Positions 3 to 53,246 of a stretch of 64,000 bases of DNA are shown here, one piece after another. This stretch comes from Thermoplasmatota archaeon (GTDB lineage Archaea > Thermoplasmatota > Thermoplasmata > Halarchaeoplasmatales > Halarchaeoplasmataceae), in the NCBI GenBank assembly GCA_018334755.1, contig JAGXLI010000001.1, positions 21,023 through 85,022 of the forward strand, read 5' to 3'. Under the pieces are notes generated by a model. The model was not told the DNA's origin and ran no database searches. It was given only the letters and a program-made list of their open reading frames with translations. The translations under genes and the position numbers were made by a program. Numbering within the stretch: position 1 is the stretch's first letter; each line of letters opens with the position of its first letter.

Positions 3-80
3 GAATTACAGGAAGTGAAGGGCATAGGGCCTGCAAAATCCGAAAAGCTGTATGAAAGCATCCAAGACGTTGAGAGCTAA
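3..80 (+). CDS. 3' fragment of a gene truncated by the window edge; the C-terminus carries a helix-hairpin-helix motif (LQEVKGIGPAKSEKLYESIQDVES*)
   Basis: Frame 3 is open from the window start to TAA at 78-80. It has a GIGxxxAxxL HhH signature typical of DNA-binding C-termini such as UvrC or XPF. Only 25 aa are visible. Confidence 0.3.
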   Translation, partial: ELQEVKGIGPAKSEKLYESIQDVES

Positions 81-2960: not shown

Positions 2961-4058
2961 ATGATGGATGTAGATTTAGAAGAGATCGCGGACAAGATAG
3001 TGAACAAGTGCATGAGGGTAGAAGAGGACGAGGTGATCATAGTCAGCGGAGGAATACATAATTTTGAACTAGTGGAAGATATCGCCGTGAACATAAAGAA
3101 GAACGGCGCTTTCCCGGTATTAAGAGCCAATACCGAGAGACTCAGGAAAAAGATGACGGAGGAAGTGGATAAAGATCTTCTAGAGAAAACTCCCGAGCAT
3201 ATGATAAGATGGTTAGATGACGTGGACGGGAGGATAGGGATAGATAGTCAGAAGGATCCTAGGATCCTGCAGCAGCTGTCTGAAGAAAAGATCGGAGCTC
3301 AAAGGAAGGCTAGAAAACCGATACAGGACAAGATCAACGAAGAGAAGATCCGGTGGACCGGTATCGGCTATCCGACCGAAGAGAAGGCCGAGATGTACGG
3401 TATCGATTACGAAGAGTTCTGGGACATGTTCTGGAAGGCCTTGAACGTGGACTATGACGAGATGATGAAAAGAGGTCAGAAGATAGCTGAACCTCTACAA
3501 GAAGGAGATGAAGTGCATATCACGTCGGAAAAAGGGACCGATCTTGAGTTCTCCATAGGAGAGAGGAACATAATCGTGGATGACGGCATAATCTCTGAGG
3601 AGGATAAGGAAAGCGGATTCGTCGGCAACAATCTACCGTGCGGCGAGGTTTTCTGCGCTCCTATAGAGGATTCAGCGAACGGCAAGGCGTTCTTCGACGT
3701 GGCCTTCTACCGCGGCAATGAGATTAGGGGTATCGAAGCGACCTTTGAAGACGGAAAACTTGTCGACGCTACGGCTGAAAAGAATGAAGAACTCTTCCAT
3801 GAAGTCATCGAGAACGCCCAGGGCGATAAAAAACGCATCGGCGAGTTAGGCATAGGTATAAATCCGGAAGTACATCGAGCGATAGGATATACCATAACGG
3901 ACGAGAAGATAATGGGCAGCATCCACTTGGCTCTGGGTGAGAACAAGATGTTCGGCGGTGAGAACGACTCGTCTCTCCACTGGGACCTGGTGATGCTCGA
4001 TCCGTCCTTAGAAGTGAACGGCGAGAAGGTAATGGACAACGGTGAACACCTGGTCTGA
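2961..4058 (+). CDS. aminopeptidase, M29 (thermophilic metalloprotease / AmpS-PepS) family
   Basis: 365 aa. GELGIGINPE and HLALGEN motifs, and an overall layout resembling M29 aminopeptidases. Confidence 0.65.
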   Translation: MMDVDLEEIADKIVNKCMRVEEDEVIIVSGGIHNFELVEDIAVNIKKNGAFPVLRANTERLRKKMTEEVDKDLLEKTPEHMIRWLDDVDGRIGIDSQKDPRILQQLSEEKIGAQRKARKPIQDKINEEKIRWTGIGYPTEEKAEMYGIDYEEFWDMFWKALNVDYDEMMKRGQKIAEPLQEGDEVHITSEKGTDLEFSIGERNIIVDDGIISEEDKESGFVGNNLPCGEVFCAPIEDSANGKAFFDVAFYRGNEIRGIEATFEDGKLVDATAEKNEELFHEVIENAQGDKKRIGELGIGINPEVHRAIGYTITDEKIMGSIHLALGENKMFGGENDSSLHWDLVMLDPSLEVNGEKVMDNGEHLV

Positions 4059-4392: not shown

Positions 4393-4642
4393 TACTGATC
4401 TATTCGTACGTGGTACTTAGAGCCGGTGAGCTTTATTGATCGACCGCTCTCTCACCGACCTACTTCACCTCTCTGAGTAGGATGTGTTTTGATCACACTA
4501 GCTGCTGACACTTCTATTTATCCTGATAGAATAGAGCAAAGTCACTTTAACCATACGATAATATTTAAGTAGAAAAAATCCGTCTCGACCGGTGGAGCGG
4601 ATAGATTTAGCTAGTCTCATGCTTCGAAGGGAAGTGAGATAT

Positions 4643-8846: not shown

Positions 8847-9944
8847 TCATCCTTTCTCATCGAACTCGTCAAGCAGGTCCTCGGCCAATGGACCTTCGAA
8901 ATAATTGAAATACACGAACGTGATGAAGAAAGTGTTCACTAGGAAACCGACCAGGTAGAAGATGAATGAATACACCAATATCTCGGGATCTACGGCTTTC
9001 AGAGCTAACCTCAAGAAAAGGAAGATGGTCCCGAGCGTCAGGACGAGCCCCAGTAATCTAGATCGGGCGCCCTCGAAGAGGAAGAAATCGGCGGCGGGAC
9101 CCGGTATCTTTACTTTGAGCCTCTTGAATATGAAAAGCGGTATCACGACCACGGGTATGAAATACGAAACGGCGGAGGCCAAAGCGAAGAGTTCGCTCAA
9201 AGACCTCTCCGCTAGAAGGAGAGGATTCAAGCTTATGTAGATCGCCATGATCGAAGCCACTATGGCCTCTAGAAAGAAGGCCGACCTGAAATTTTCCCAC
9301 GAAAAACTGTCTTGAGACGTCTCTTCGTCGATCTTCATCTCACCAGTATCCAGCACCTCTGGAATATCGAAGAACCATCTGAGAAACTTTTTATAAGTCG
9401 TATTCAGGAGACTTTCACTCTCCTCCGCCTCCTTAACATCTTCGAAGATCTTCCCGAAGTACTTCCTCTGAAAGAGCACTATAAGGCTGACCAGTCCGAA
9501 ACCCTGAAGCAGGAGAATAAGCAACCCGGCTAGGTAGGAAAGGAAAAAAATCAAAGATACGACCAGAGGCATGATAAAGGCGCCTAAACCGGATAGATAT
9601 CCCCCGAAAAATGGTACTAGAACAGGTTGGTACAAAGAGTACCCTATGATGATGGTCAAGAAAGTCAGAACGAAAGATACTCCCGTCAGGAACTTCAGGA
9701 TATCTCTGGTTTTGATCCTGCCGTATTTTCCGTGGAATATTAGGGAAAAAATGCCGACAACTAAAAAAATTGTCACTAGACCGTTCAAGATCGGGTTGAT
9801 GAGCTCGAACAGGTCCCCGGCAAAATTGAATGTGATAGTGTAGATGATCCAGACGGCGAAGACCAGCATAAGTATGTAAAACAACTTGCGGATCCTATCA
9901 TCGTGTTTACTTCGAACTTTCACCGTCTCCCATTTCTCACCCAT
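8847..9944 (-). CDS. polytopic integral membrane protein (about 9 TM segments), function unknown
   Basis: Multiple hydrophobic helices, no recognised motif, convergent with 8238..8816. Confidence 0.5.
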   Translation of the reverse strand: MGEKWETVKVRSKHDDRIRKLFYILMLVFAVWIIYTITFNFAGDLFELINPILNGLVTIFLVVGIFSLIFHGKYGRIKTRDILKFLTGVSFVLTFLTIIIGYSLYQPVLVPFFGGYLSGLGAFIMPLVVSLIFFLSYLAGLLILLLQGFGLVSLIVLFQRKYFGKIFEDVKEAEESESLLNTTYKKFLRWFFDIPEVLDTGEMKIDEETSQDSFSWENFRSAFFLEAIVASIMAIYISLNPLLLAERSLSELFALASAVSYFIPVVVIPLFIFKRLKVKIPGPAADFFLFEGARSRLLGLVLTLGTIFLFLRLALKAVDPEILVYSFIFYLVGFLVNTFFITFVYFNYFEGPLAEDLLDEFDEKG

Positions 9945-10145: not shown

Positions 10146-13100
10146 CTAGTCTTCTTCACTAGGTTCTTCTTCGAAGGTAGATTCATCAGTAGACTCTTCT
10201 TCACCGAACAGGGCTTCTTCATTGGATCCCTCTTCCTCGAAGATTGGTTCGTCCTGGCTCTCTTCTTCACCGAACAGTTCTTCCTCAGTAGACTCTTCTT
10301 CTTCGAAGCTTGACTCGTCCCCGCTCTCTTCTTCACCGAACAGTTCTTCTTCAGTAGACTCTTCTTCTTCGAAGCTTGACTCGTCCCCGCTCTCTTCTTC
10401 ACCGAACAGTTCTTCTTCAGTAGACTCTTCTTCTTCGAAGCTTGACTCGTCCCTGCTCTCTTCTGGGGGTTCGGGCGGCCGTCTCGCTGTGTCTTTCTCT
10501 CTCGTATACAGAAGCCCGATGACGATCAGTAGCAGGATTATGATCGGGATGAGATATAGACTCAAACCGAACCCGTCCAGCATGCCTTCTTCACTCACCT
10601 GTGCTTCACTCACATCTACGCTTATAGTTTGAGTGTCTTCGTTGCCTGAACCGTCTCTGACCGTCAGCGTCACGATGTGCTCTCCGGACTCATCGAAGGT
10701 GTAAGGAATCTTCTTTCCAACATATTCCTCTCCGTCTATGGTCCAGACATATTCACTTATATTTCCAGTAGAGTTCCCGGCGTTGAGGATCTCTCTCTCG
10801 CCCTTATCAAGACTTCTGTTTCCGCCCGCCACGACTGCCGTTAATTCCTCTACGGTCTTTTCAGCTACATCTACAGTTATGGTATTAGAGCCGCTGTTCC
10901 CGGCAGCGTCTTTGACCATCAACGTGACATCGTACTCTCCGGATTCATGGAACGTGTAGTTGACCATCTTTCCTTCAAATTTATCTCCGTCTATAGTCCA
11001 GTTGTACTCGACTATCTCCACATTATCCGAAGAACCGCTGCCGTCGAAGGTGACCTCATCACCTTCCTCTACGTTTTTATCTTCACCGACATCGGCGACC
11101 GGGGCAGTTGCGTCTTTGACCGTGACGTTCAACGTATCGGTATCCGTGTTCCCGGCAGCGTCCCTGACCATCAACGTGACCTCGTACTCACCGGGATCAT
11201 CGAACGTGTAGTCGAACATCCTGACATCGAATTCTTCTCCTTCTATGTTCCAGATGTAATCGACTATCTCGACGTTATCCGAAGAGCCGGTGCCGTCGAA
11301 AGTGACATCGGTATCCTCGTCCACGTTTTTATCTTCACCCGCGTCGGCGACTGGATCGGTGATATCCTTGACCGTGACTATTACAGTGTCTGTGTCAGTG
11401 TTACCTTCAGCGTCTCTAACGGTCAGCGTGACCTCATACTCACCGGGATCATCGAACGTGTAGTTGATCCTTTCGCCTCCGAACTCTTCTCCGGTTATAT
11501 TCCAAGTATACTCGACTATCTCCACATTATCCGAGGAAGCGTTGCCATCGAAAATGACTTCGGTATCTTCCTCTACGTTTTTATCTTCTCCAGCGTCGGC
11601 GACCGGATCGGTCGCATCTTTGACCGTTATCATTACAGCATCGGAGTCCGTATTATCTTCGCCGTCCTTTACGGTCAGCGTCACTTCGTACTCTCCCGGT
11701 TCGTCGAACGTGTACGGGATCAATTCTCCTCTATATTCTTCTCCGTCTATAGTCCAGATGTACTCGGCTATATCTCCGGAGGATCCTCCGGCGTCTAGGA
11801 CCACTCTAGTGTCTTCATCCACGCTTCTATCTTCGCCTGCATCCGCTATCACTTCTTCCACGACAGTCATATGCCGGCTCTCAGATCCAAGGATTACTTC
11901 ATAATCTCCAGGTTCTTGGAGCGTGATGTTCTCGGTTATGTCTATGACTTCATCTACCACGACAGTATAAGTCCAGGACTCGACGACGATTCCAGTTTCG
12001 TTTTCAACCACTAGATCGATCTGTCCTTCGGCGGTCCCTACGTTTTCGACCGTTCCGTTGATCGTCACCTGCTCGCCTTCGACGATCTCAGAGGGATCTA
12101 CACTCAGATCGGCAATATCAAATTCCGGTACGGCCTCTTCCACGGTCACGGTCTCGCTTTTATCTCCTATTGTGACCGTATAAACCCCTGGCTCCTGGAG
12201 CGTGACGTTCTCGCTTATATGCGTGGTATTACCGGCCCCTACAGTATAATTCCATGACTCGACGACGATTCCAGTTTCGTTTTCAACCACCAGTTGGATC
12301 TGTCCTTCGGCGGTCCCTGTATTCTCAACCGTTCCGTTGATCGTCACCTGCTCGCCTTCGACGATCTCGGTCGGATCTACACTCATATTGCTGACATCAA
12401 ATTCCGGTACGGCCTCTTCTACGGTCACGGTCTCGCTTCTATCTCCTAGAGTGACCGTATAATCCCCAGGTTTCTCGAGTGTGACGTTCTCGGTTATATT
12501 CAAGGTCTTCCCGGCGCCTACAGTATAAGTCCAGGATTGGACGACACCGCCGGTTTCGTTTTCAACCACCAAATCTATCTGTCCTTCGGCGGTCCCTGTA
12601 TTCTCCACGGTACCGTTTATCATTATCTTGTCGCCTTCGACCACTCGATTTGGAGCGGTGAGGTTCAGAACGTTCAGGTCCGATGCTCTTTTTTCTACGA
12701 ATATACCGACCTGAGCGGTATCGGAGTTATTTTCTGCATCCGTAACTATCAACGTTGCGTCATAGGAACCCGAATATGGGAGTGAATGGGATATTACATC
12801 TCCTTGGAGTGTCACGGAATAGTTCTGGTTTGCGGCATCTCCGCTGATGCCTTCGACTACCCATTGGTAATCAACGATACCTATATTGTCGATAGATGCC
12901 GAACCGTTCAAGGTGAAGGTTTCGTTTGTTTTTACCAATTTGTGGCTTCCCCCTTGAGCGACCGGACTTTCAGTATCTATCGAATAAACGTTTATGGTAT
13001 CGGTATCGTGATTACCGTGGAAGTCCGTGACATTCAAGCTCACGGTATAATTCAGAGCGTAATCGAGGGTATGGTGGGTCGTTTCATGATATAGGGTGAT

Positions 13101-16100
13101 CGAAGATCCAGTCGGATCTTCTATATTCCAGGTATAGTTTGCTATGCCTACATTATCGTGGGAATTTGACGCGTCTAAAGTGATTTCGTCGCCCTGGTAA
13201 GCGGTGAAGTTCCCTCCGGCGTCAGCGACCGGCAGCGCCGTATCGTTCAGATAGAATTCCCAACTATTTCCGTAGGGTTCGACGTTTCTAATTTTATAGT
13301 CCTGGTACTCCGCGACCACGTACCAAGAGTGATTGGTAGCCATCGCTTCTTCTGATAGGTTCCAAGACACGGAAGCAGTTCCGTTCATCACACCACTGTC
13401 GTAACCTATCAGCTTGTCTGTCTGGTTCTGGTAGAAACTCACGTTCACCGGCTGTCCGATGGGTGTAGTTATGTCTACCGATAAAGTCTGGTTGGCCCCG
13501 TCCACTTGGGCTTCATCGGCTGGAACAGGATTAACGGCATCTGGCATCGGGGGTTCCTCTTTAGAATTTTCGTTCATATCCATATTGTCCACTCTATCGA
13601 CGGCTCTCACCACATAGTGCCACTGTATCCCGTCGTCACCTCTGTTTGGATCCTGGTACATGTAACTTGCTGAGTCGTCGGCCTTGACCGTGTCTATAAT
13701 TGTACTTTGATCCCAAGGTCCGGTAGAATAGTTAGATCTATAGATCACGTAATGATCCACGTCATCGGCTCCTGCACCGTCGTCGGCCGAGGCGTTCCAG
13801 GTGATCTCGTTACCCTTAACAGGGTCTAGATAAAGATCGTGTATCGATTTTAAACGTATATCGTCGACGCGCCAGCCGGCTCCATAGGCCCCGTCAAAGG
13901 CTTCTACTCCCGCGGTCCAATTGAGGTGAACGGTTTGTCCCTGATAAGCCGTCAGGTCGAAAGTGACGGTCTCCCAGCCGACTGCGCCGCCCCAGCCGGA
14001 TTCTCCTCCGAGTGGGTTACCATAACTGTCACTTATCGTACCGTCGTAACCGCTTTCAGGTTCGATGAGCTGGTAATTGCCATTAGCCCCAGTAGTAGAT
14101 ATCTTGAGATTACCACCGTCGTAGAGAGATGAATCCCCGAAGTCCCTCCAGTGTTGGAAGGTCAGTTTTACGTTATCGCCATCTTCAGGTATCGCCATTT
14201 GAGGTGTGATCAGTGAACTCATCATACCGTGAGAACTGTTCTTGTTGAACTGACCGTCGCCCCAGTCCCAGGAATTGTTCCCACTGACGGAACCGTGCTG
14301 CCGGATACCCCAGTCGCTGGCTTCTGCGTGGCTTTCTTCCGTTAAATATCCAAGATCGCCGCCTTCTACGTCATCGTACCATACAGTTTCCTCCCTGACC
14401 TTGGTATCGCCGTACCAATCCACGGTGAGATTATCCACCTGCTGGGGAGGCTTCGCATTTATCACGGCAGAGGCCGTCTTCCAAGTGGAGTAAGGAAGAT
14501 AAGTCTCGAAAGTGAAGGTAGCCGAGGTATTGGTCTTGTACCCGTCAGAGACCTCTGCATACCAATGGAAAGTACTGTTGGAACCTATGTACTCGAAGGT
14601 AACTCCGGCCCTCGTTCCGGATTCAACAGCCGTTACTGTTTTATTCCTGATCTCGCTGCCCGTTTCATTCAGTAGATGGAAGGTGACGTCAAGATCATCT
14701 CCATTGGGATCGGAGACGTTCACGCTGAGATCCGGTGAATGGGTCACATTCGTTTCGCCGTCGGTCGGGATCGGGTCCGTTGGTTTGTTCGGTGGATAGT
14801 TATGATCCACGGAGATCCTTCTAGTGGTGATATTGTCCTCTATGTTGTCGTCTTTCGGATGCATTGTTTTCAACTTGAGGACGTAGTCGCTCGGGACGAC
14901 GGCCGGTGTCCAATTAGCGAACTGAAGCTGTGTATTTTGAGTTATATTCAACGAATCTATGATCGCCTGGGAGTCGTATTCAGGGGTGGTATATTCATTC
15001 GTGACGGTCACGTTGTCGATCGTCCAGAACTCGTCCTGTTCGACTTCCATCGAGTAGAACTGCCATCCGACCATGATGTTGTCTTCACCGGAGGCCCACT
15101 GAGAAAGATCGTATGAGATATTGCCTTCCCCTACACTGCTTCCGATCCGCTGATAAGTGGTACCGTTGTCCGTTGATATCAACATGTCCCTGTCGTTGGT
15201 TCCGTTGTATCTGGATTCGAACTCCAGCAGGACACGGTGTGTCCCCACGGTACAATTTATCGGACCGGTCCATAAGACGTCATCCTCGTAGGCATCCGCC
15301 GGTGCGATCTGCATGAAGTCTCCATTTGTATCAGTCCACGTGTTATTGTTTCCGTTCCTGTCCTCCGTGGTCCAGTTGGCCGGCATACCCGCGGAGAAGT
15401 TCTCATCTACCTCCGTGACTTCAGTGATCGGTTCGATCGTCATGTTAACCGGCGTGTCCGTGATGTTCTGATTTCCCACGTTGGATACGGTTCCAGAGAC
15501 TTCCTGCTGATATTGGTAGACGGGTTCGACCGGAGTATCTATGGAAGTAGCTTCTAAATCATAAATCACGGGTCTGACCTTAACCGTCCTTCGTACCGAA
15601 TCGTTAGATTGATTCGAATCGTTTGATAATCTCGTGGTGCTGTTGATGATGTACATCCCGTCAGAGGAGGGAGTCCAGTTAGCGAATGTTGCCGTCGTGT
15701 TTTCCCCTGTATTCACATCGACCGTGACTTCGTCCGTATATTCCTGGGTCGTGTAATAAACTTCGACGTTGTCGATAGACCAGTCGTCGTATGACGAGGT
15801 CCCGTTGGTACTGTTGAATCTAAAGCCGATCTTCAGGTCCGAACTGCCGTCAGCATACGTAGAGATATCGAAATCGTACTTTCCATCCTCATCTCCAAAT
15901 CTAACGATCCTGTTCCAGGTGGCTCCACCATCGTTGCTTACAAGCACATCGCCGTAGGAATCTCCAGAGATACTGCTGTTATAGAAATCACTATCGAACT
16001 TTAACCGGGTGTTCGTGGCGTTCGTAGCATTGATCTTTGGAGTGATCAGATACTCGTCCTGCCACACGTCAGAGGAAGCTTCTTCGACAAAAGCATAAGG

Positions 16101-19100
16101 AGTATCAAAATTATATCCGTCATCCCATTTCCAGGTCTCTGAAGATTCATTGTCTATAGTCCATTCGGAAGGTATTTCGTCGTTGAAGTCCTCTTTTAGT
16201 AATCCAACTTTTTTGCCTATCGTGGTGTTGACCGGAACGTCGGTTTCGTCGACAGTCCCGTAGTTACCGACATCGGCTGTCACGTTCTGGGTGCGGTTGA
16301 AGACGACATTCGAGGGTGATATGATCTCTTCGACCCCGGTATCACTTATATTATAGGCGTCAAATTCTTCTACAGAATAATTATTGGTATCGTCCATATC
16401 AGATGACAATTCCGTCGTAACGTTAATCAAGTAGCCTCCGGGAGAAGGAGGGGTGAAATCTGCAAATGTGACATTTTTGTCCTGCCCAGCATCGATAGGT
16501 TCGTTGATCTCATCGGTATAGACTGGACTCGTTGTGTAGCCAGTTATATTGACGTTATCTACCCGCCACCATTCTGGTTCTGAATGATAGCTGTTATAGA
16601 ATCTAAACCTTACTTTTACGTTATTTTTACCCGCTGCCCACTGGGTCAGATCCATCGTTTCCGTTCCGCTGCCGGCAGTATCTACGAGATCCCAGGTACT
16701 ACCTCCATCGTTGGAGATGTATACTTCCCTAGTGTTATAACCCTCATAATCCGAGTCGAAAGTGAGTTCGACCTTGTAATCGGAGCTTGAAAGGTCGTAT
16801 GAAGCGGTGGTCATATTGTCTTCTTCATCGTCTTCAGTACTGTCGACCTGCATGTAGTCTCCGTACGTCTCGTTCCAAGTATTATTGTTACCATCTACGC
16901 TCGTAACATTCCAATCCGTAGGTAATCCAGAGGTGAAGTTTTCATCAACGGCGTAGTTATTCGCCGATATCTTCTTTATCGTTGCGTTCACAGGCACGTT
17001 TTCGTCGAAAGTCCCTAGATTACTAACATTAGCTTCGACGGCCTGTGTGACAACTCCAACGGTGCCGGTCGGTGAGATTATATGGTCCGTAGCTGCATCG
17101 TGATCGTCTATGACCTCTATCTCTTTTATCGTATGATCGTTAGATTGATCAGTATCTCCTGATAATAATGTCGTAGAGTTCATCTCGTATATGGCCTCTT
17201 CACTCGGTGTCCAGCTTGCGAAATCTGCGGTCGTGTTTGCTCCCGCGTTCACGTCTACTGTAACTTCGTCCATATATTCTGTCGACACAGAATTAAACTG
17301 TACGTCGTCCATATACCAATCCCAGAGGCCATAACTATCCCCGTCAAATTCAAACCTTACCTGGGTGCCGGTCCCTATATAACTCGATATATCCTTATCA
17401 TAAGAACTTGGACCTACATCTCCAGATATCGGGTTCGACCATGGGGTGATATCCGACCAACTGTCACTCGAATTTTGTCTAATAGAAACGTTACAATTAT
17501 ATCCGCCGCTATAATCATATATATATGAGTTGAAGTTGAGCGACAGGCTCGAGGAGCTCGTCGTGTCGATCGCCGGTGTCTGGAGATATGAATAGTCATC
17601 CGTGATGTCAGAATAGTCTAGATCCGCTTCTGGAGATGTTCCACCTGCTTCGCTACTGTCGGACTGCGACCAATCGCCGGATTCTGTAGTCCAACCTGTC
17701 GGTGGGACGCCGCCGGAGAAATCTTCGGATAACAAACTAGACATTTTCTTTATCGTCGTGTTCACAGGGACACCTGTCAGGTTATTGTCCCCGTAGTTAT
17801 GTACCACGCTTTTAACGGGATGAGTACTCGTATTCACTCTCTCTTCTGGAGAAGTGATCTCGGTAACCCCCACGTCATCGGTCGCCGCAGGTTCAGTACT
17901 CATCAGATCGTTTTCGCTTCCCGTCGTGTTATAGCCGGATCCTTCGTAACCCGGATCCTCGTCTAGGTACCATGCGGTTATGTTACCGTCATGTTCTACA
18001 TACAGCCCTTGTTCACTCGCATTCGTGGTAGTGCTGACGTTGCCCTTGAACAATCCGTCTATTTCCGGGCTTTCCGTCAATGTCACCATCACGCTGTCGA
18101 TCTCCGTCCCGGCAGCATCCTCGCTGGTTATGTTAACATCATAGGTGCCTTCGCCTGCAAGATCGATATCTCCCAGAGTGATGTTTACCGTGTCGTTCCC
18201 GGAATATTCGTTTCTATCTAAGGTAAACGTCGCATTTTTTATCATATCCTCCTGCGTATTGTATGCTGTCAGAGCGTAGTCCTGGTTGGGGGTACTGTCG
18301 TTGTTGGCATCGGCCGGGATATCGTGCCCTATAACCTTCACGGTATAGGTCCCGCTCTCTAGATCGTCCGGATGGACATACACGTTCTCCACGTTGTTCA
18401 CGTCGTCCCATCCGTCGCTGTTATTGTCGAATTCTCCCATCGCGTCAGTATTTGGATAAGAGAAACCGGTGTCGCTGACGGTTCCTCCGGTTTCATTGAA
18501 AGCGTTACCACGATAGACATCGCCGCCGGGCGAGATCACTTTTAGGTTGAGATCGTTCTTGAGTACTGGTGTTCCTCCGGAGCTGTCTCCTGACTGAGCG
18601 TTCTTATCCGTCCAGGCAAGGGTTATATTCAAAGGTTTGTCAGGGTCGTCGACCGTGAGCTGGTATTCGTCCTGTTCACCGGTCGTCAGTAGATTCGGCT
18701 GATCCTCCATCGTGAGACCCACTGGATCTGATTTAGGATATTCCAGTCTAGATAGGTCCACTATACCCCACCCTTCGTCTCGATTCGGGATATGGCCTCT
18801 TGAATTCCCAACATCAGGATCTAGATCTCTAGCCGAATTTATCAATATAGATTTGACCATCGCCGGGCTCGGAGTTTCTCCCTCGTTTGCTTCATACCAT
18901 TCGACGACGCTTGCAGCTGCGCCCGCCACAGCAGGATTGGACATCGACGTTCCCGACATCTCAGTGTAGCCTCCATCAGGCGTTAGTGAGTAGATGCCCT
19001 CGCCGGGAGCCGTGACGTCGGGTTTGATCCTATTGTCTTCCGTCCACCCTCTAGAACTGAAGTCCGCGACCGTCTCCGCATTTTCGAAGCCGTCATCAGG

Positions 19101-20627
19101 GTTATAAGTCTGTGTAGCTCCAACCGTTATGACGTTCTTTGCGGTACCCGGACTACCTATCGTTTGATCTCCTCTCGAGCCGTCGTTGCCCGCTGAGACC
19201 GTGATGACCATCGGCCTGTTCTCCGGAGTATCCCTATCCGCTTCCCTGACGGCCTGGTCGAAGACCGCGTCGGAATCACTGTAGGATCCGTCAGTACTTG
19301 AACCCCAAGAATTAGAATGTACGTAGGTGTCTGAACGCTGTGCCGGCTCCTCTACGATCGGATAATATTCGCTGGGTAAAAAGCTGCCGCCGGAATCGAA
19401 TATCCTTGTAGCGAAGACTTCAGAATCGTATGCTAGGCCCTGGGCCATGTAATAGTCGGCAAAACTGAACGTTTGACCCGTCCCACCATAGGCGTCGGCT
19501 GCTATCGAACCGGCGGTGTGGGTGCCGTGACCGTGTCCGTCTTCCCAGTTGGTGGGATCGCTTCCGAAGGAATATCCTCCTATGACCCGTCCATCTAGAT
19601 CGGAATGACCTGCATTGCCGACGGTTCCGTCACCCAGACCGGTATCGGCGGGTGAGACCGTCACACCTTCGCCTGTATAACCGATCTGATTTATGTATGC
19701 GCCGTGATCCCCGTGGTTCCTGTAAGGGATGTCGGGATTTCCTTCACGCTGGTCGCCGCCGGAGTGAGCATACTCATCATCCATGAACCAGCATCCGCCG
19801 CCGATTATCTGTGAGTCCATCTCCCCGTGTAGTTGAGGTTCCAGATGGGGTGATATATAATACACGTCGTTCATCTTCGCTAGGTCATAGAGTTCTTTCT
19901 CGGAATCGGCTTTTAAGATCAGTCTGTGACCTTCTTCTAGATCCTCCGAACCTAGAATTTTCAAGTCCGACTTTAACTTCTTGACTCTCTTCCTCTCAGC
20001 GTTCGGCCTGAGGGTGACGTCGACCACGCCGGGCCTGACGTCGGAATGGAGCTTGTAGGCCGGCTGATATATACCGACCCAGTCCACGTAATCTAACGAT
20101 TCAACTTCTTCAGCCTCTTCCGGCGTCATGCTGACTTCATAGGCGTAATTCGGCACGGAATTTACTATGTTGACGCCCTTATCTTCCAGGCCGGCTCTCC
20201 ATTCTGGATTTACGGGACCTAAAAAGTGAACGATGTAAAGTCCCTCGGTCTCGGGCTCGTAATCATCTATCTGAAGGCTGGGATCGATTTTACCATTTCC
20301 TTTCTCGATATCGAAGGTATGTCCTTTTACTGAAACCTTCGTTCTGTCGGGGAGAGTGTTGTAGATCATACCCCTCTCGGCGAGATCATCTATCTCCTCC
20401 TCAGTTCCCTCTACCAGAGCGCGGTTTCCATATCGCTCCAAGACATCCGGGCCCATACTGTTTATCTGGGAGATGTCTTCTGTTTCGGTATCGAGGAGTA
20501 CGATCTCGGTTTCTTCTTCCTTACTCGGTCGTGAGTTCGCCAGTGCTCCACCCGCTACGGAGAGCACCGAGAAGAACAGTATCGCTATGGCAAATAATGC
20601 TGCAGACTTTTCTTTTATGCTCACCAT
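10146..20627 (-). CDS. giant (3493 aa) cell-surface subtilisin-like (S8) protease / adhesin-like multidomain protein with a C-terminal TM anchor and a repetitive polyacidic cytoplasmic tail
   Basis: Signal peptide MVSIKEKSAALFAIAILFFSVLSVAGGALA. An N-terminal domain is shared with the second S8 (GPV.PEW). S8 catalytic motifs are DTGLGDG, HGHGTHTAGSIAA and GTSMSNPAVAGAAA. Then come several roughly 200-aa W/D-rich beta-sandwich modules (MAM, cleaved-adhesin or choice-of-anchor-like), three tandem CARDB-like 90-aa modules and five PKD domains (ADAGEDKNV...YTWNI...GEYEVTLTV). The TM helix is LYLIPIIILLLIVIGLLY, followed by the tail (EEEESTEEELFGEEESGDESSF)x3. NxS/T sequons are very dense. Confidence 0.85.
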   Translation of the reverse strand: MVSIKEKSAALFAIAILFFSVLSVAGGALANSRPSKEEETEIVLLDTETEDISQINSMGPDVLERYGNRALVEGTEEEIDDLAERGMIYNTLPDRTKVSVKGHTFDIEKGNGKIDPSLQIDDYEPETEGLYIVHFLGPVNPEWRAGLEDKGVNIVNSVPNYAYEVSMTPEEAEEVESLDYVDWVGIYQPAYKLHSDVRPGVVDVTLRPNAERKRVKKLKSDLKILGSEDLEEGHRLILKADSEKELYDLAKMNDVYYISPHLEPQLHGEMDSQIIGGGCWFMDDEYAHSGGDQREGNPDIPYRNHGDHGAYINQIGYTGEGVTVSPADTGLGDGTVGNAGHSDLDGRVIGGYSFGSDPTNWEDGHGHGTHTAGSIAADAYGGTGQTFSFADYYMAQGLAYDSEVFATRIFDSGGSFLPSEYYPIVEEPAQRSDTYVHSNSWGSSTDGSYSDSDAVFDQAVREADRDTPENRPMVITVSAGNDGSRGDQTIGSPGTAKNVITVGATQTYNPDDGFENAETVADFSSRGWTEDNRIKPDVTAPGEGIYSLTPDGGYTEMSGTSMSNPAVAGAAASVVEWYEANEGETPSPAMVKSILINSARDLDPDVGNSRGHIPNRDEGWGIVDLSRLEYPKSDPVGLTMEDQPNLLTTGEQDEYQLTVDDPDKPLNITLAWTDKNAQSGDSSGGTPVLKNDLNLKVISPGGDVYRGNAFNETGGTVSDTGFSYPNTDAMGEFDNNSDGWDDVNNVENVYVHPDDLESGTYTVKVIGHDIPADANNDSTPNQDYALTAYNTQEDMIKNATFTLDRNEYSGNDTVNITLGDIDLAGEGTYDVNITSEDAAGTEIDSVMVTLTESPEIDGLFKGNVSTTTNASEQGLYVEHDGNITAWYLDEDPGYEGSGYNTTGSENDLMSTEPAATDDVGVTEITSPEERVNTSTHPVKSVVHNYGDNNLTGVPVNTTIKKMSSLLSEDFSGGVPPTGWTTESGDWSQSDSSEAGGTSPEADLDYSDITDDYSYLQTPAIDTTSSSSLSLNFNSYIYDYSGGYNCNVSIRQNSSDSWSDITPWSNPISGDVGPSSYDKDISSYIGTGTQVRFEFDGDSYGLWDWYMDDVQFNSVSTEYMDEVTVDVNAGANTTADFASWTPSEEAIYEMNSTTLLSGDTDQSNDHTIKEIEVIDDHDAATDHIISPTGTVGVVTQAVEANVSNLGTFDENVPVNATIKKISANNYAVDENFTSGLPTDWNVTSVDGNNNTWNETYGDYMQVDSTEDDEEDNMTTASYDLSSSDYKVELTFDSDYEGYNTREVYISNDGGSTWDLVDTAGSGTETMDLTQWAAGKNNVKVRFRFYNSYHSEPEWWRVDNVNITGYTTSPVYTDEINEPIDAGQDKNVTFADFTPPSPGGYLINVTTELSSDMDDTNNYSVEEFDAYNISDTGVEEIISPSNVVFNRTQNVTADVGNYGTVDETDVPVNTTIGKKVGLLKEDFNDEIPSEWTIDNESSETWKWDDGYNFDTPYAFVEEASSDVWQDEYLITPKINATNATNTRLKFDSDFYNSSISGDSYGDVLVSNDGGATWNRIVRFGDEDGKYDFDISTYADGSSDLKIGFRFNSTNGTSSYDDWSIDNVEVYYTTQEYTDEVTVDVNTGENTTATFANWTPSSDGMYIINSTTRLSNDSNQSNDSVRRTVKVRPVIYDLEATSIDTPVEPVYQYQQEVSGTVSNVGNQNITDTPVNMTIEPITEVTEVDENFSAGMPANWTTEDRNGNNNTWTDTNGDFMQIAPADAYEDDVLWTGPINCTVGTHRVLLEFESRYNGTNDRDMLISTDNGTTYQRIGSSVGEGNISYDLSQWASGEDNIMVGWQFYSMEVEQDEFWTIDNVTVTNEYTTPEYDSQAIIDSLNITQNTQLQFANWTPAVVPSDYVLKLKTMHPKDDNIEDNITTRRISVDHNYPPNKPTDPIPTDGETNVTHSPDLSVNVSDPNGDDLDVTFHLLNETGSEIRNKTVTAVESGTRAGVTFEYIGSNSTFHWYAEVSDGYKTNTSATFTFETYLPYSTWKTASAVINAKPPQQVDNLTVDWYGDTKVREETVWYDDVEGGDLGYLTEESHAEASDWGIRQHGSVSGNNSWDWGDGQFNKNSSHGMMSSLITPQMAIPEDGDNVKLTFQHWRDFGDSSLYDGGNLKISTTGANGNYQLIEPESGYDGTISDSYGNPLGGESGWGGAVGWETVTFDLTAYQGQTVHLNWTAGVEAFDGAYGAGWRVDDIRLKSIHDLYLDPVKGNEITWNASADDGAGADDVDHYVIYRSNYSTGPWDQSTIIDTVKADDSASYMYQDPNRGDDGIQWHYVVRAVDRVDNMDMNENSKEEPPMPDAVNPVPADEAQVDGANQTLSVDITTPIGQPVNVSFYQNQTDKLIGYDSGVMNGTASVSWNLSEEAMATNHSWYVVAEYQDYKIRNVEPYGNSWEFYLNDTALPVADAGGNFTAYQGDEITLDASNSHDNVGIANYTWNIEDPTGSSITLYHETTHHTLDYALNYTVSLNVTDFHGNHDTDTINVYSIDTESPVAQGGSHKLVKTNETFTLNGSASIDNIGIVDYQWVVEGISGDAANQNYSVTLQGDVISHSLPYSGSYDATLIVTDAENNSDTAQVGIFVEKRASDLNVLNLTAPNRVVEGDKIMINGTVENTGTAEGQIDLVVENETGGVVQSWTYTVGAGKTLNITENVTLEKPGDYTVTLGDRSETVTVEEAVPEFDVSNMSVDPTEIVEGEQVTINGTVENTGTAEGQIQLVVENETGIVVESWNYTVGAGNTTHISENVTLQEPGVYTVTIGDKSETVTVEEAVPEFDIADLSVDPSEIVEGEQVTINGTVENVGTAEGQIDLVVENETGIVVESWTYTVVVDEVIDITENITLQEPGDYEVILGSESRHMTVVEEVIADAGEDRSVDEDTRVVLDAGGSSGDIAEYIWTIDGEEYRGELIPYTFDEPGEYEVTLTVKDGEDNTDSDAVMITVKDATDPVADAGEDKNVEEDTEVIFDGNASSDNVEIVEYTWNITGEEFGGERINYTFDDPGEYEVTLTVRDAEGNTDTDTVIVTVKDITDPVADAGEDKNVDEDTDVTFDGTGSSDNVEIVDYIWNIEGEEFDVRMFDYTFDDPGEYEVTLMVRDAAGNTDTDTLNVTVKDATAPVADVGEDKNVEEGDEVTFDGSGSSDNVEIVEYNWTIDGDKFEGKMVNYTFHESGEYDVTLMVKDAAGNSGSNTITVDVAEKTVEELTAVVAGGNRSLDKGEREILNAGNSTGNISEYVWTIDGEEYVGKKIPYTFDESGEHIVTLTVRDGSGNEDTQTISVDVSEAQVSEEGMLDGFGLSLYLIPIIILLLIVIGLLYTREKDTARRPPEPPEESRDESSFEEEESTEEELFGEEESGDESSFEEEESTEEELFGEEESGDESSFEEEESTEEELFGEEESQDEPIFEEEGSNEEALFGEEESTDESTFEEEPSEED
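10238..10470 (-). repeat. 3.5 tandem copies of a 66-bp in-frame repeat encoding the 22-aa acidic unit ESSFEEEESTEEELFGEEESGD in the cytoplasmic tail of the giant protein
   Basis: The unit gaagcttgactcgtccccgctctcttcttcaccgaacagttcttcttcagtagactcttcttcttc recurs perfectly at about 10304 and 10370, with diverged copies at about 10238 and 10436. Confidence 0.8.
11880..12700 (-). repeat. three tandem DNA repeats of about 273 bp encoding CARDB-like modules (VPEFD..SVDP.EIVEGEQVTINGTVEN.GTAEGQI.LVVENETG)
   Basis: Strings such as gattccagtttcgttttcaaccac recur at about 11990, 12270 and 12545. The protein modules are more than 80% identical. Confidence 0.6.
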
Positions 20628-49517: not shown

Positions 49518-50672
49518 ATGCAGTTACCGGATTACGAAGGGAAGAGCATAGTCAATCTGATGAGCTCTATATCAGGGTCGTTCGGGGTTCCCTCGAATTA
49601 TCCGGCTCTTGAAGAGCTGAGATCGGCGGACCTTGAAAATCATAAGAACGTAGTACTTCTAGTGATAGACGGTTTGGGATTTAGATATCTGGATTCTAAG
49701 GAAAGTAACTCTTTCCTGAAACGGAACCTTAAGACAAAGATCACCTCGGTCTTTCCATCATCTACGGCCTCGGCGATACCGACGTTCCTTACGGGAAACG
49801 CCCCTCAGAAACACGCGATAACTGGATGGTACATGCATCTCAAGGAGATAGGAACGGTCTCGACCGCACTGCACTTCGCGCCGCGTTATGGAGATAGGGC
49901 CTTCTCCGAGGACGGGATAGATTTACAGGAGTTGTTGGAGCTAGACCCCATCTATGAAAAATTTGAAAATTCATTCATCGTGACTGATGAAGATATAAAA
50001 GAGAGTGTTTTGAGTAAAACTACGAGCGCGGAAGCTGTAACATATGGATATGAAGATATGGACAGTTTTACTGGATCCTTAGAGAGGGCGGTCAGAGCCT
50101 CGGAAGAAAGAAAGTACATCTATGCTTACTGGCCGGGTTTCGATTCACTAGCCCATGAACATGGAGTCAGCAGTACAGAAGTAGAGCGGCATTTTCAAGA
50201 ACTGGATAAGAAGTTGAAACAGTTCGTTGAAGATATAAAAGATACGGATACCATGCTGATGATCACTTCTGACCACGGCTTCATCGATACGACAGAGGAG
50301 AAGTCAATTAGACTCAAGGATCACCCGGAGATGGAGGAATGTCTCACGCTGCCTATGTGCGGCGATTACAGATCCGCTTACTGCTACTTGCGCCCCTCTA
50401 AGGATGACAGATTTCGTAACTACTGGGAAGACGAATTGCAGGACTTCTGCCGCCTTCACGAGGCTCAGGAACTTATAGAAAAAAATTACTTCGGCATCCA
50501 TGAGCCGGATCCCAAGCTCTTCGATAGGATCGGGGACTACGTCTTGATCATGAAGGAAAATTACACGATGCAGCACGGATATCCTAACAAGGACGATCCG
50601 TTCATGATAGGTCAACATGGAGGAGTGACCGAAAAGGAGATGTGGACCCCACTCTCAGTTATCGAATTGTAG
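49518..50672 (+). CDS. alkaline-phosphatase-superfamily enzyme (nucleotide pyrophosphatase/phosphodiesterase-like)
   Basis: LLVIDGLG metal site, VFPSSTASAIPTFLTG (nucleophile Thr/Ser motif as in NPP FPTkTfPNH.sivTG) and ITSDHGF. Confidence 0.65.
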   Translation: MQLPDYEGKSIVNLMSSISGSFGVPSNYPALEELRSADLENHKNVVLLVIDGLGFRYLDSKESNSFLKRNLKTKITSVFPSSTASAIPTFLTGNAPQKHAITGWYMHLKEIGTVSTALHFAPRYGDRAFSEDGIDLQELLELDPIYEKFENSFIVTDEDIKESVLSKTTSAEAVTYGYEDMDSFTGSLERAVRASEERKYIYAYWPGFDSLAHEHGVSSTEVERHFQELDKKLKQFVEDIKDTDTMLMITSDHGFIDTTEEKSIRLKDHPEMEECLTLPMCGDYRSAYCYLRPSKDDRFRNYWEDELQDFCRLHEAQELIEKNYFGIHEPDPKLFDRIGDYVLIMKENYTMQHGYPNKDDPFMIGQHGGVTEKEMWTPLSVIEL

Positions 50673-53246
50673 TGTATAGCTGATCGTCCAGTCCACGGAA
50701 ACGTCCCCGGAATTATAAACCCAGTAGCCACGCCCTTCTTTCATATAGTGGTCATTTAGATCGTGGATATACTGTATATTGCTTTCCATCGATGAGTTGA
50801 ACACACCTATCTTCGTCACCTCGGAAGGTAGCGTGTCCCTAGCCCTCCTCTTGACGGATGAAGGATAGCCGACCATGTTCCATCCCGCCTCCAGTTGAAT
50901 GGTGGTCGACCTCGGTGCCGTTCCCTCGATAGATAGAGTATCCAGTTGTGTCATATGTATCCATAGACCCATCGTCCTATCCCAGGTGGAAAGGTCGTCG
51001 AATCTTGAATTTCTATTTGGGATGTAGCTCTTCCAGTTTTCACTTTTCCTCTCATAATACATCACTTTGTCATAGTGGCCAGCCACGCCGTACTCTGGAT
51101 CGTCCAATATCTCTACGAGGTCGTTCGATCTTTGGTAATTGTTGCCGTCCGCTATGACGCTCGAAGAAACGAAGTTCCACCCGGGCCGGAGTTCGATATC
51201 TCTCGTTACATACTTTCTTTCCGTAGTAAATGACCAGGTACTTGAGGTAGTAGTGTCCGTCCCGTCGGAGACCTCGACGTACCAATGATAGGTCGTACCA
51301 TAGGCTACATCCCAACTGACAGAGACGGTCTCGCCATCCGAAACGCCCGTCCGTTGGGCGATCCGATCTCCGTTAGATGCGTTGTAGAAGGATACGGTCA
51401 TCTGGTCCTGGTCCGTATCGAAAAGATCGACTTCGAGCGTTAGAGACGGCTTGACTTCGGAGGCTCCGTCTGAGGGATATGGATTCGAGGGTTTTTCAGG
51501 AGCTGCGTTGATATTGAACGACCACGTTATCGACTTATTTGTATCGAAACCATCATTTGCTACAGCGTACCACGAATAACTCTTTCCAAGAGTGAGACCG
51601 TTCCAGACGACGGAAGCTTTGTTTCCGCTCGCGACCCCCGTGTCGTTCGCTATCAGGTCTCCCGTATCGGCATTATAAAAAGAAACGTCCATGGCGTCGT
51701 TCTCAACGTCCGAAACATCGACCGAGAGAGTGACCGAACTCGTTTCACCGAGTTCTTCTCCCCCGCTCGGAGAACCGCCAGAAGGCGAATCGGGAACGAT
51801 GTTTTCTCTAGCGGTATAGTAGATATCGAAATCAGTTCCCTCCAGTAGTTGGATGGGTTTGTTTTCATATCCCCAGTACAGAGCCTGGGTATCGTTACCC
51901 TCCAGCCACGTATGGTGAGTGGTCCCGTCGTATCGAACTTTGATGAACGAGATATCGAATTCCAAATCTAAAAGTCCGTATTTCCTCTCCGCAAATTCGT
52001 AAAGCCCGCTTCCGTTGGTGGTTCCGCTGCTGTCCACGGTATCTTTGATAGAAGATTCGTGTATAAAATTACCATCCAGGTCCCTATAGGCCGTGTTGTT
52101 ATATACATATATTTCCGCTCCCGAGATAGGGTTTCCGGACTTATCCGTCACCTTGATGTAATTCTTGTCCGGTACGAAGTACCGGTTGATATGTTCTGGA
52201 TAGGTGTCGTATATCCTTGAATCAGCTCCCATCTTCGAGATCACGTTCTTCGAGTATTTGGAGAAGGTATCCACGCCGTACGGATAGTCCATTATACGAA
52301 CGTTGTTCGTACTCGGTTGATGACCGACGGAAGCTACCCCGTTATTGCTCGGTTCCACTTCCCAGAGATAGAAATCCGGTATACCTCTATAGTGCCCGGT
52401 CTCGTGAACGAAGGCGTCGTAAGCTCCACTGTCGGTCAAAGGGTTCCAGTTATGACCGATTGCATAATACCTGTCGCCCATATATCCCCCGAAAGAGCCG
52501 TTCTGATTGAAGAGGACTAGTAGATCATCACTGTGAGGGGTCTCTTCGAAGAGCTCGCTCCAAGAGTCTTGAGAGTAAGTATATATCTCGGAAACGTTGT
52601 ACCAGATCTTCAGGTCGTTTTTATCGTATATCTTGTTGGTATAGTTGAAAGTGTCCCAGACCAGGTCTTCATAATGGGTGTAGTTCTCGTACGTTTCGTC
52701 TGAAACCCCTACTCTGACGTCATCGAAAATTTTCACTGAAGTATCGACGGTCAAAGTTCGAACGGAACTCCAGCTGCTGGCAGATCCTCCATCCCGTGCA
52801 TAGACCCTCCAGTGGTATGTCTTCCCGTTTGAAAGAGTTACATCGTTATCGCTGCCGATCACGAACGAAGTGTCGTTCATCCCAGCGTCTTTCGTGAAAA
52901 CAGGCGATGAAAAGTCACTGTTATCATCGAGCTGAAAGACATAATAGAGATCGTCTCCGTCTGGATCTTCGACCTGTTCGCAGACCAATGTCGGTTGAGA
53001 AGGGGCAAAAGATGCGGAATTGTGAGGATAAATTAGGGAAGGAGTCGGGGGCGGTGTATTCTGTGTCTTTTCGTCTATCTCCTCACTCGTTCCGGCCTTA
53101 CCATTTGAAAAAGTGGTTGTCTTCCCAGAGCCCAAAGAGGGGATCAGTAGCGCAGCGGAGCTACTCGCAAATATCAGGATTATAACGATAAAAGTGAGAA
53201 ACTTGTTTTCTCTTTGTCTCATAGTTAATATTGGACCTGCAGACAT
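50655..53246 (-). CDS. secreted HExxH zinc-metallopeptidase-like protein with FN3/Ig-like domains
   Basis: A signal peptide after MRQREN. HETGHYRGIPDFYLWE is HExxH plus a downstream Glu. Repeated roughly 80-aa Ig-like modules (...SVSW....YHWYVEVSDGTDTT.S.TWSF) are also present in the giant S8 protein. There is no TM anchor. Confidence 0.5.
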   Translation of the reverse strand: MSAGPILTMRQRENKFLTFIVIILIFASSSAALLIPSLGSGKTTTFSNGKAGTSEEIDEKTQNTPPPTPSLIYPHNSASFAPSQPTLVCEQVEDPDGDDLYYVFQLDDNSDFSSPVFTKDAGMNDTSFVIGSDNDVTLSNGKTYHWRVYARDGGSASSWSSVRTLTVDTSVKIFDDVRVGVSDETYENYTHYEDLVWDTFNYTNKIYDKNDLKIWYNVSEIYTYSQDSWSELFEETPHSDDLLVLFNQNGSFGGYMGDRYYAIGHNWNPLTDSGAYDAFVHETGHYRGIPDFYLWEVEPSNNGVASVGHQPSTNNVRIMDYPYGVDTFSKYSKNVISKMGADSRIYDTYPEHINRYFVPDKNYIKVTDKSGNPISGAEIYVYNNTAYRDLDGNFIHESSIKDTVDSSGTTNGSGLYEFAERKYGLLDLEFDISFIKVRYDGTTHHTWLEGNDTQALYWGYENKPIQLLEGTDFDIYYTARENIVPDSPSGGSPSGGEELGETSSVTLSVDVSDVENDAMDVSFYNADTGDLIANDTGVASGNKASVVWNGLTLGKSYSWYAVANDGFDTNKSITWSFNINAAPEKPSNPYPSDGASEVKPSLTLEVDLFDTDQDQMTVSFYNASNGDRIAQRTGVSDGETVSVSWDVAYGTTYHWYVEVSDGTDTTTSSTWSFTTERKYVTRDIELRPGWNFVSSSVIADGNNYQRSNDLVEILDDPEYGVAGHYDKVMYYERKSENWKSYIPNRNSRFDDLSTWDRTMGLWIHMTQLDTLSIEGTAPRSTTIQLEAGWNMVGYPSSVKRRARDTLPSEVTKIGVFNSSMESNIQYIHDLNDHYMKEGRGYWVYNSGDVSVDWTISYTLQFDN

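Follow-up and report, generated by a model that had tools for sequence, protein, structure and literature searches.

Introduction

Among the described archaeal proteins that join a protease to adhesion domains on a very large scale are the SPEARE proteins of Nanohaloarchaeota, which reach 8553 amino acids (aa) and carry a conserved cytoplasmic type III restriction-enzyme-like domain together with an ectodomain containing laminin-G and toxin-like regions; another giant archaeal protein, halomucin, has about 9000 aa (PMC6642349). In this work we analysed a 3493-aa protein, hereafter called the giant, encoded in a 64,000-nucleotide stretch of contig JAGXLI010000001.1 (assembly GCA_018334755.1, positions 21,023 to 85,022 of the forward strand); this whole stretch is the window referred to below. 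The host belongs to the Candidatus (Ca.) Halarchaeoplasmatales / PWKY01 group, an order known from metagenome-assembled genomes (MAGs) only, for which a salt-in strategy has been inferred (PMC11332174, PMC11287216). Like SPEARE, the giant is a very large archaeal protein from a hypersaline habitat, with an extracellular serine-protease region, adhesion domains, a transmembrane helix near the C-terminus and a cytoplasmic part; it comes, however, from another phylum, and no homology is evident beyond generic domains. By the published definition (PMC6642349) it is not a SPEARE protein, its cytoplasmic part being a 115-aa acidic repeat with no restriction-enzyme domain. An earlier note on this DNA had considered the design unusual and the protein one of the longest expected in an archaeal genome. 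The first claim is not supported even outside the lineage, as protease-headed giants with a C-terminal transmembrane helix and a cytoplasmic part had already been described (PMC6642349), and 3493 aa is large, yet not near the length of SPEARE or halomucin.

The closest solved relatives of the protease portion are KP-43 and SubHal, in which the catalytic domain and the jelly-roll that follows it are likewise contiguous, with the Asp/His/Ser triad and the oxyanion Asn at the same positions. KP-43, a bacterial enzyme, is secreted and small (434 residues); in the giant, the same unit lies behind a 280-aa pro-region and is followed by approximately 2600 more extracellular residues, a transmembrane helix and a cytoplasmic tail. 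The same head, at 35-64% identity, is found in S8 surface peptidases of halophilic Thermoplasmatota MAGs, none of which, to our knowledge, has been studied experimentally. The gingipain K1 and K3 domains, MAM domains and CBM29 share the jelly-roll fold of the inserts found in the stalk of the giant, and the gingipain domains are also attached to a protease; the identity is nevertheless below 20%, and the jelly-rolls of the giant are inserted into CARDB domains instead of standing in line. Furin and kexin also combine an S8 protease, a following beta-barrel domain, a single transmembrane helix and a cytoplasmic tail with an acidic Ser-rich cluster, which in furin acts as a sorting motif. In the giant there was no match to a P-domain hidden Markov model (HMM), the structural match was weaker (template-modelling score, TM-score, about 0.5), and both the domain of life and the trafficking machinery are different; this resemblance can be taken as an analogy only.

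Results

The giant is encoded by a single uninterrupted open reading frame (ORF) of 3493 aa on the minus strand of the window (10146..20627), as the earlier note had read it. The product (P0121 in our protein set) is already deposited as MBS3815950.1 at NCBI, annotated as "S8 family serine peptidase" and derived from a Thermoplasmatota MAG on a 91-kb contig. Independently assembled relatives of 3281-4316 aa were collinear with it at 40-50% identity: P0122 aligned to residues 2-2451 of the giant in one high-scoring segment pair (41% identity) and P0125 to residues 9-2071 (50% identity). At least eight other giants of 2831-4316 aa, which were among the top matches of a profile made from its stalk, have the same head and a collinear architecture, and in the sister giants P0122-P0127 and P0134-P0138 the stalk supermodules, the Ig/MAM/Fn3 cassette and the PKD arrays described below occur in the same order. 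Sister giants were present in NCBI, JGI and Logan assemblies. The three internal tandem-repeat arrays of the gene and its origin in a MAG could suggest that the long ORF is an artefact joining several genes across repeats; however, the PKD and CARDB repeat copies are merely 76-85% identical in DNA, the reading frame is unbroken for 10.5 kb, and the relatives remain collinear for up to 2450 residues in a single alignment. Because such relatives recur in separate assemblies, a chimera is very unlikely. Doubt is limited to the copy number of a 66-nt repeat in the tail, two units of which are identical. We conclude that the giant is a genuine, already deposited member of an expanded surface-subtilase family in halophilic Thermoplasmatota.

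The giant is very acidic (isoelectric point 4.05) and contains only 3 Cys. The window proteins are uniformly acidic, which is consistent with the salt-in strategy reported for the order (PMC11332174). Kyte-Doolittle analysis detected two hydrophobic stretches in the giant and no others, a signal-like one at residues 4-32 and a C-terminal one at 3348-3378. N-X-S/T sequons were in large excess (109 vs 42 +/- 5 in shuffled sequences), clustered in residues 750-3000 and absent from residues 1-500, the pattern expected of a glycosylated archaeal ectodomain. The features of the protein, from its N-terminus to its C-terminus, are as follows.

20535..20627, minus strand: signal peptide, aa 1-31, MVSIKEKSAALFAIAILFFSVLSVAGGALANS; the hydrophobic window 4-32 peaks at 2.41 on the Kyte-Doolittle scale.
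19698..20534, minus strand: conserved pro-region, aa about 32-310; three tandem beta-alpha-beta-beta-alpha-beta units.
18753..19685, minus strand: subtilase (S8) catalytic domain, aa 315-625; D328, H367, S561 and oxyanion N481.
18303..18710, minus strand: KP-43-type C-terminal jelly-roll, aa about 640-775; predicted local distance difference test (pLDDT) of the model >85.
17928..18260, minus strand: unassigned beta domain, aa about 790-900, NATFTLDRNEYSGNDTVNITLGDIDL...; conserved in P0003, P0049 and P0122-P0127.
14778..17915, minus strand: four supermodules of ~260 aa, at aa 905-1165, 1166-1428, 1429-1689 and 1690-1950.
13263..14777, minus strand: conserved cassette, aa 1951-2455, with an Ig-like domain, an InhA/MAM-like jelly-roll (about 2075-2255), an Fn3-like domain (about 2262-2350) and a further Ig-like domain.
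12708..13256, minus strand: two PKD domains, aa 2458-2640, similar to the C-terminal PKD array by self-comparison.
11868..12704, minus strand: three intact CARDB repeats of 93 aa each, aa 2642-2920.
10602..11861, minus strand: five PKD repeats of 84 aa each, aa 2923-3342.
10506..10574, minus strand: single transmembrane helix, aa about 3352-3374, LSLYLIPIIILLLIVIGLLY; the Kyte-Doolittle score peaks at 3.03 within windows 3348-3378.
10149..10505, minus strand: predicted cytoplasmic acidic tail, aa 3375-3493, with four 22-aa units ESSFEEEESTEEELFGEEESGD.

The earlier note had placed an intact subtilisin domain at the very N-terminus. Its integrity was borne out, while its position was not, given that the signal peptide and approximately 280 conserved residues precede it. 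The Peptidase_S8 model (PF00082) scored 145.9 bits over residues 319-621 (cut-off 21.8) and was matched along its whole length (1-288). The catalytic residues lie in canonical motifs (D328 in ADTGLG, H367 in HGTH, N481 in SAGNDG and S561 in GTSMSNP), D328, H367 and S561 align to Asp30, His68 and Ser255 of KP-43, and across 30 aligned heads of the family all four positions showed either no variation or a conservation of 90% or more. The best solved relatives of the head were KP-43 (PDB 1wmd, E 5.7e-52, 33% identity) and SubHal (5fax). In a phmmer search, residues 315-773 paired contiguously with residues 17-424 of 1wmd, spanning the catalytic domain and the jelly-roll, and an AlphaFold2 (AF2) model of the head (residues 1-900, pLDDT 80) superimposed on 1wmd with a TM-score of 0.86 and a root-mean-square deviation (rmsd) of 2.8 A by Foldseek. 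These similarities point to a protease of the KP-43 type that is probably active. The pro-region is conserved across the head family and its three units were delimited at 40-106, 129-186 and 200-260 from the secondary structure of the AF2 model; in Foldseek the head model also aligned with the pro-forms ProN-Tk-SP and pro-subtilisin E. The pro-region is a probable propeptide or intramolecular chaperone. Only sub-threshold Pfam matches were obtained for the beta domain at aa 790-900, which modelled poorly (pLDDT <50). With regard to the start of the gene, N-termini of homologues aligned to the giant from residues 2-9 onwards, and reading of the sequence revealed a Shine-Dalgarno-like GGTG located 9-12 nt before the ATG and itself following an A/T-rich stretch.

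The stalk contains four supermodules, whose internal similarity was 31-53% in self-comparison. In each of them a W/D-rich segment of ~150 aa interrupts a CARDB-like sequence. When the insert was deleted and the flanks spliced, three of the four supermodules matched CARDB, across both of its halves and with no other family (one at 24.3 bits, above the gathering threshold of 22.7, and two at 17-19 bits; the remaining one gave no match). As the spliced flanks recover CARDB, the supermodules can be described as jelly-rolls nested in CARDB domains. The AF2 model of one supermodule (pLDDT 81, predicted TM-score 0.74) supported this fold: by Foldseek, the insert resembled CBM29 (1gwk, TM-score 0.62) and the gingipain domains Kgp K3 (3m1h, TM-score 0.60, rmsd 3.3 A) and K1 (4itc, TM-score 0.58), with further matches to InhA2 (4yu6) and MAM (8a28). 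In contrast to the cleaved-adhesin or MAM-like modules announced by the earlier note, neither the supermodules nor the isolated inserts matched Cleaved_Adhesin, MAM or choice-of-anchor J in Pfam or NCBIfam at E values up to 1; that label is thus valid for the jelly-roll fold and not for family membership, and the modules are nested in four split CARDB domains. A word-index homology search with one supermodule returned no matches, and relatives were found instead by an exhaustive profile search, in which the profile of the four supermodules retrieved 4261 proteins at E <= 1e-3 from a representative library. Four of these proteins (P0126, P0128, P0130 and P0131) are giants without an S8 head, with up to 13 CARDB-with-nested-jelly-roll stretches per protein.

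The cassette at aa 1951-2455 recurs in relatives, directly after the head in P0013 and collinearly in the sister giants. Its InhA-like_MAM match (~2075-2255) was weak and below cut-off (E 0.0055), and no Pfam or NCBIfam HMM matched the other domains of the cassette, whose Fn3-like and Ig-like labels are tentative readings of the sequence pattern. The three CARDB modules that had been noted earlier were recovered as intact repeats (E 4e-7, 30.6 bits vs a cut-off of 22.7), in addition to the four split ones; they form a 279-nt tandem repeat (2.4 copies, 85% matches) with 56-82% protein identity between copies. Instead of the five PKD domains proposed before, seven were found (PF18911, PKD_4, 253.9 bits in 7 stretches; PF00801, 116 bits), five of them in a 252-nt tandem repeat (3.4 copies, 76% matches; 40-78% protein identity between copies). 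The PKD unit boundaries were drawn from self-comparison.

The anchor and the tail agreed with the earlier description of a single transmembrane helix, an intracellular acidic tail of 22-aa LFGEEE units and an array resembling short linear motifs. The helix is followed by the basic residues TREKDTARR. The signal peptide and the one helix, with the ectodomain secreted, predict a type I topology, in which the tail is cytoplasmic. The tail proper (~3379-3493) has 115 aa, 50% of them Asp or Glu, and its DNA is a tandem repeat of period 66 according to Tandem Repeats Finder (10194-10464, 4.1 copies, 92% matches). At the protein level it consists of nine half-units of 11 aa with one Phe each, located exactly 11 residues apart (3397 + 11n). 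LFGEEE occurs four times, with LFG at 3407-3409, 3429-3431, 3451-3453 and 3473-3475, and the pattern aromatic-[GDE][DE][DE] was observed 9 times, compared with 1.24 in shuffled sequences. No domain was matched by the tail in HMM searches.

Comparable motifs were found in other tails, although the particular 22-aa repeat of the giant is its own among relatives. Several sister giants also have a transmembrane helix and an acidic Phe-motif tail. The tail of P0122 contains six GFEEP and a DLFGEEETN, that of P0123 EEFGEEE and DIFGEEDDEL, that of P0125 ALFEEE, ELFEEE, DLFEED, DLFGES and KLFDE, and that of L001 EEEELYGEP and EEEVFEES, while P0007 and P0012 carry DFEEEPFEEEEFEEDLFDDEF. In 7 of 11 acidic tails Phe was 2-6-fold commoner than in the ectodomain, with Val, Ile, Tyr, Trp and Met nearly absent, and the aromatic-acidic pattern exceeded the shuffles in the giant, P0007, P0012 and P0123. 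In the near-identical proteins P0125, P0271 and P0272, the insertions and deletions were confined to the acidic spacers and every Phe site was kept. Two unrelated proteins of the window, of the NosD and GH15 types, also end in a transmembrane helix and an acidic tail with SFEEE, GFEEN or YFEDEE.

A search with the head gave 580 matches, about 98 of which, at 35-57% identity over most of the head, belong to halophilic Thermoplasmatota; the named close relatives come from Ca. Natronoplasma, Ca. Saliniplasma and other Thermoplasmatota MAGs. The closest match among species-representative genomes was the Thermoplasmatota MAG isolate NA-30cm_bin.11 (L001; 64% over the head). Together with the collinear giants and the acidic Phe tails of unrelated window proteins, these relatives show that the design is not unusual within the lineage. 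Most head relatives have 1000-1570 aa, with interchangeable stalks and anchors, and their C-termini are of at least five kinds: a ~110-aa beta-domain, a PGF-CTERM-like end, a transmembrane helix with a short basic tail, a transmembrane helix with a long tail of two zinc ribbons, and a transmembrane helix with an acidic Phe-rich tail. The ~110-aa beta-domain, ending in ...GYW.YN....V.W.V.Y, is the commonest C-terminus of the S8 family (P0002, P0013, P0040 and ~35 other head homologues) and also terminates an unrelated 863-aa secreted protein of the window (50655..53246, minus strand); it had no Pfam or NCBIfam match and may be a cell-surface attachment or sorting domain. In P0004, P0005, P0010, P0062 and P0073 the tail after the helix has one or two zinc-ribbon-like CxxC...CxxC units (for example CPTCG..WYCxxCxxYK), that is, a folded cytoplasmic module on an extracellular protease. 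A Ca. Saliniplasma contig (L124, JAWOGF010000090.1, 1045-15190) contains three tandem S8 genes on one strand (1381, 2117 and >1328 aa), which indicates local paralogue expansion of the protease family.

Other genes of the window also encode surface proteins and regulators, as listed here.

4592-6364, plus strand: PQQ-like beta-propeller and Fn3 protein, 590 aa, secreted, bitopic.
6588-8156, plus strand; 33306-34295, minus strand; 34487-35494, minus strand: three paralogous ArsR-type helix-turn-helix and PAS regulators within 30 kb, one of them also with GAF.
8847-9944, minus strand: 365-aa protein with ~8 transmembrane segments.
24239-26461, plus strand: NosD/beta-helix and CARDB surface protein, 740 aa, secreted, bitopic.
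27224-32182, plus strand: second S8 surface protease (1652 aa), which has a signal peptide and the domains Peptidase_S8, PKD (three) and GEVED (four) and lacks a C-terminal transmembrane helix.
55373-59776, minus strand: GH15-like glycosidase and Big_7 protein, 1467 aa, secreted, bitopic.

The second S8 protease, encoded 6.6 kb away on the opposite strand, is a paralogue of the giant that is unanchored and has another type of stalk. The C-terminal transmembrane helix is flanked by WW in the NosD-, GH15- and PQQ-type proteins. The 8-transmembrane gene is co-oriented with the giant, 201 nt downstream of it; an oligo-T followed by an A/T-rich (TATA-like) element between both genes suggests that it is transcribed separately. 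Several metabolic enzymes, transporters and regulators are also encoded in the window, and tRNA and Rfam scans of it found one tRNA-Met and nothing else.

Discussion

Taken as a whole, the giant is probably a Sec-secreted, heavily N-glycosylated, type I membrane-anchored subtilase-adhesin of the KP-43 type, belonging to salt-in Thermoplasmatota and bearing a putative motif platform on its tail. Its noteworthy features are the CARDB-nested jelly-roll module and the short Phe-acidic cytoplasmic tail. We propose that the protease is made as a zymogen behind the three-unit pro-region and would be carried at the tip of a stalk in which ~19 Ig-like domains (CARDB, PKD and Fn3-like) are arranged in line; the fully extended length of the stalk may be very roughly 70-100 nm. 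The four jelly-rolls mounted sideways in CARDB and the MAM-like one standing in line probably bind polymers or particles. The most likely role of the giant is to keep protease and binding modules at a distance from the cell for attachment to, and digestion of, extracellular protein. The C-terminal helix would anchor the giant, one of many paralogous surface proteases in the lineage, and its tail appears to be a fast-evolving array generated by slippage, with hydrophobic-Phe-(Gly/Glu)-Glu-Glu motifs in an acidic, Ser/Thr-rich spacer.

Some observations do not favour this proposal. The pro-region had no Pfam, NCBIfam or PDB sequence or profile match, including the I9 HMM; the propeptide role is suggested by a secondary-structure topology like that of subtilase propeptides. 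Moreover, the jelly-rolls are below the threshold of all the curated HMMs tried. A different role, that of a device for cell-cell interaction or attack like nanohaloarchaeal SPEARE, aimed at the envelope of another cell and not at detrital protein, is suggested by the similar topology (serine-protease region, adhesion domains, C-terminal transmembrane helix and cytoplasmic part; PMC6642349) and by a very long stalk with adhesin-like folds, including that of the gingipain cleaved adhesin. We consider it decidedly unlikely: the giant has no type III restriction-enzyme domain in its cytoplasmic part, although that domain defines SPEARE and is its best conserved element, toxin-like or laminin-G domains were not found in the giant either, and the variety of stalks among the many paralogues suggests a set of proteases used for nutrition. 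The metabolic enzymes, transporters and regulators of the window also speak against it, with little bearing on lifestyle.

Regarding the tail, we prefer the reading that it may serve as a multivalent platform of short linear motifs for a cytoplasmic partner common to several surface proteins. Of the two roles offered in the earlier note, a docking platform and a cation-binding tail, the former alone gained indirect support. The recurring hydrophobic-Phe-(Gly/Glu)-acidic motifs suggest such a docking motif, short of proof, and several of our results weigh in the opposite direction. In L001, P0009, P0122 (for this pattern) and the GH15 protein the motif did not significantly exceed the shuffles. 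The tails of P0124 and P0127 are short and nearly or wholly devoid of the Phe-acidic motif, and other sister giants have PGF-CTERM-like ends, which implies that the tail is dispensable for the function of the ectodomain. As units 1 and 2 are identical in DNA, the repetition within the tail of the giant is not independent evidence, and slippage is able to spread any tail unit. No partner gene was shared among the neighbourhoods of the window, L001, L122 and L124, which are not syntenic. A word-index search with the helix and tail gave no match at E <= 1 among 8000 collected candidates, the region being of low complexity and unsuited to HMMER. Finally, a DNA-pattern scan of metagenomes for EELFGEEE returned at least 120 stretches in heterogeneous contexts, and among the matches listed there was no Thermoplasmatota protein with a transmembrane helix and tail; those listed included ~360-aa proteins with EEELFPEEEELFGEEE repeats, histidine-kinase-like and other proteins, and gut-bacterial proteins of up to ~3640 aa ending in EELFGEEEILPE. 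Since it occurs in unrelated bacterial and other proteins, this octapeptide is not a specific signature. In the ~360-aa proteins (L019, L020, L039, L065 and L078, from Ga0209410, Ga0190319 and Ga0180302) the C-terminal third repeats EEELFPEEEELFGEEE(PEVG), which resembles the tail unit of the giant within an unrelated protein.

These points lend weight to a tail without any specific partner, a generic polyanionic disordered segment produced by replication slippage, which in a salt-in halophile could be tolerated or could be mildly useful as a topology lock, as a solubility or spacing element (an entropic bristle) or as a K+/Mg2+-binding cushion under the membrane. We regard this as quite possible, though not the probable case. 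It would fit the high Asp and Glu content, the low complexity and the DNA-identical units, an entire proteome that is acidic, the tails of relatives, which range from 19 to 115 aa and cannot be aligned, the absence of detectable tail homologues by HMMER, and those relatives that lack Phe motifs or have PGF-CTERM-like or zinc-ribbon ends instead. It would not, however, account for the selective enrichment of Phe with exclusion of other hydrophobic residues, nor for the recurrence of the Phe-acidic motif in divergent orthologues and on unrelated ectodomains; unit 4 of the giant keeps its Phe and LFGEEES despite 12 changed codons (6 synonymous and 6 not), and insertions and deletions among near-identical proteins hit the spacers and not the motifs. 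A further alternative is that the C-terminal helix is a degenerate PGF-CTERM sorting signal, with archaeosortase-like cleavage and lipid anchoring of the ectodomain, the acidic tail then being a discarded or separately acting remnant. An ending of IPGFT/PGF, a transmembrane helix and KKK is indeed present in P0134, P0136 and P0138 among the sister giants and in nine shorter relatives, and DGFG in the giant and PGM in P0123 and P0125 are found just before the helix. Nonetheless the giant lacks the Pro of PGF and reads ...LDGFGLSLYLIP... before a tail that is 115 aa long and acidic rather than short and basic, and no archaeosortase-like gene was detected in the window, where the adjacent 8-transmembrane protein has no Pfam or NCBIfam match; we find this explanation highly improbable. 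With neither Pro-Gly-Phe before the helix nor a short basic C-terminal tail, the giant does not qualify as a substrate of archaeosortase A, and the ORF at 8847-9944 was discarded as an archaeosortase for want of any family match.

The preferred reading of a motif platform admits more extensive versions. Across halophilic Thermoplasmatota, the Phe-acidic motifs of bitopic surface proteins might constitute a common docking code in the cytoplasm, used in place of PGF-CTERM/archaeosortase anchoring; such a code, which we consider unlikely, would link very large ectoproteins to an intracellular machine by many weak contacts. The boldest version starts from the resemblance of the acidic run and the Leu-Phe-Gly units to the tip of the ribosomal stalk protein aP1, where Leu-Phe-Gly is strictly conserved. 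If the LFG units copied that tip, the tails could bring translation GTPases, or other factors that bind the stalk, to the membrane, a lead of low probability. Binding by aP1 involves a C-terminal Leu-Phe-Gly with a free carboxylate and the upstream Leu100 and Leu103 on one helix face (PMC4267659). The LFG triads of the giant are internal, with Glu and Ser at positions -3 and -6 from Leu, and do not match the factor-binding motif of aP1.

In summary, our analysis indicates that surface-tethered subtilases have expanded into a modular repertoire in uncultured salt-in Thermoplasmatota, with some members exceeding 3000 residues. This repertoire points to extracellular protein degradation and particle attachment, which are not discussed in the metabolic reconstructions of the order (PMC11332174, PMC11287216). 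The CARDB domain with a nested jelly-roll is widespread, has no curated Pfam or NCBIfam HMM and would merit a family model of its own. Furthermore, the interchangeable anchors of these proteases (beta-domain, PGF-CTERM, transmembrane helix with zinc ribbons, and transmembrane helix with Phe-acidic repeats) represent a natural experiment on the attachment of giant ectoproteins, and perhaps on their regulation. Should the tail motif prove to have a partner, it would join a very small set of short linear motifs known from the cytoplasmic face of surface proteins in archaea.

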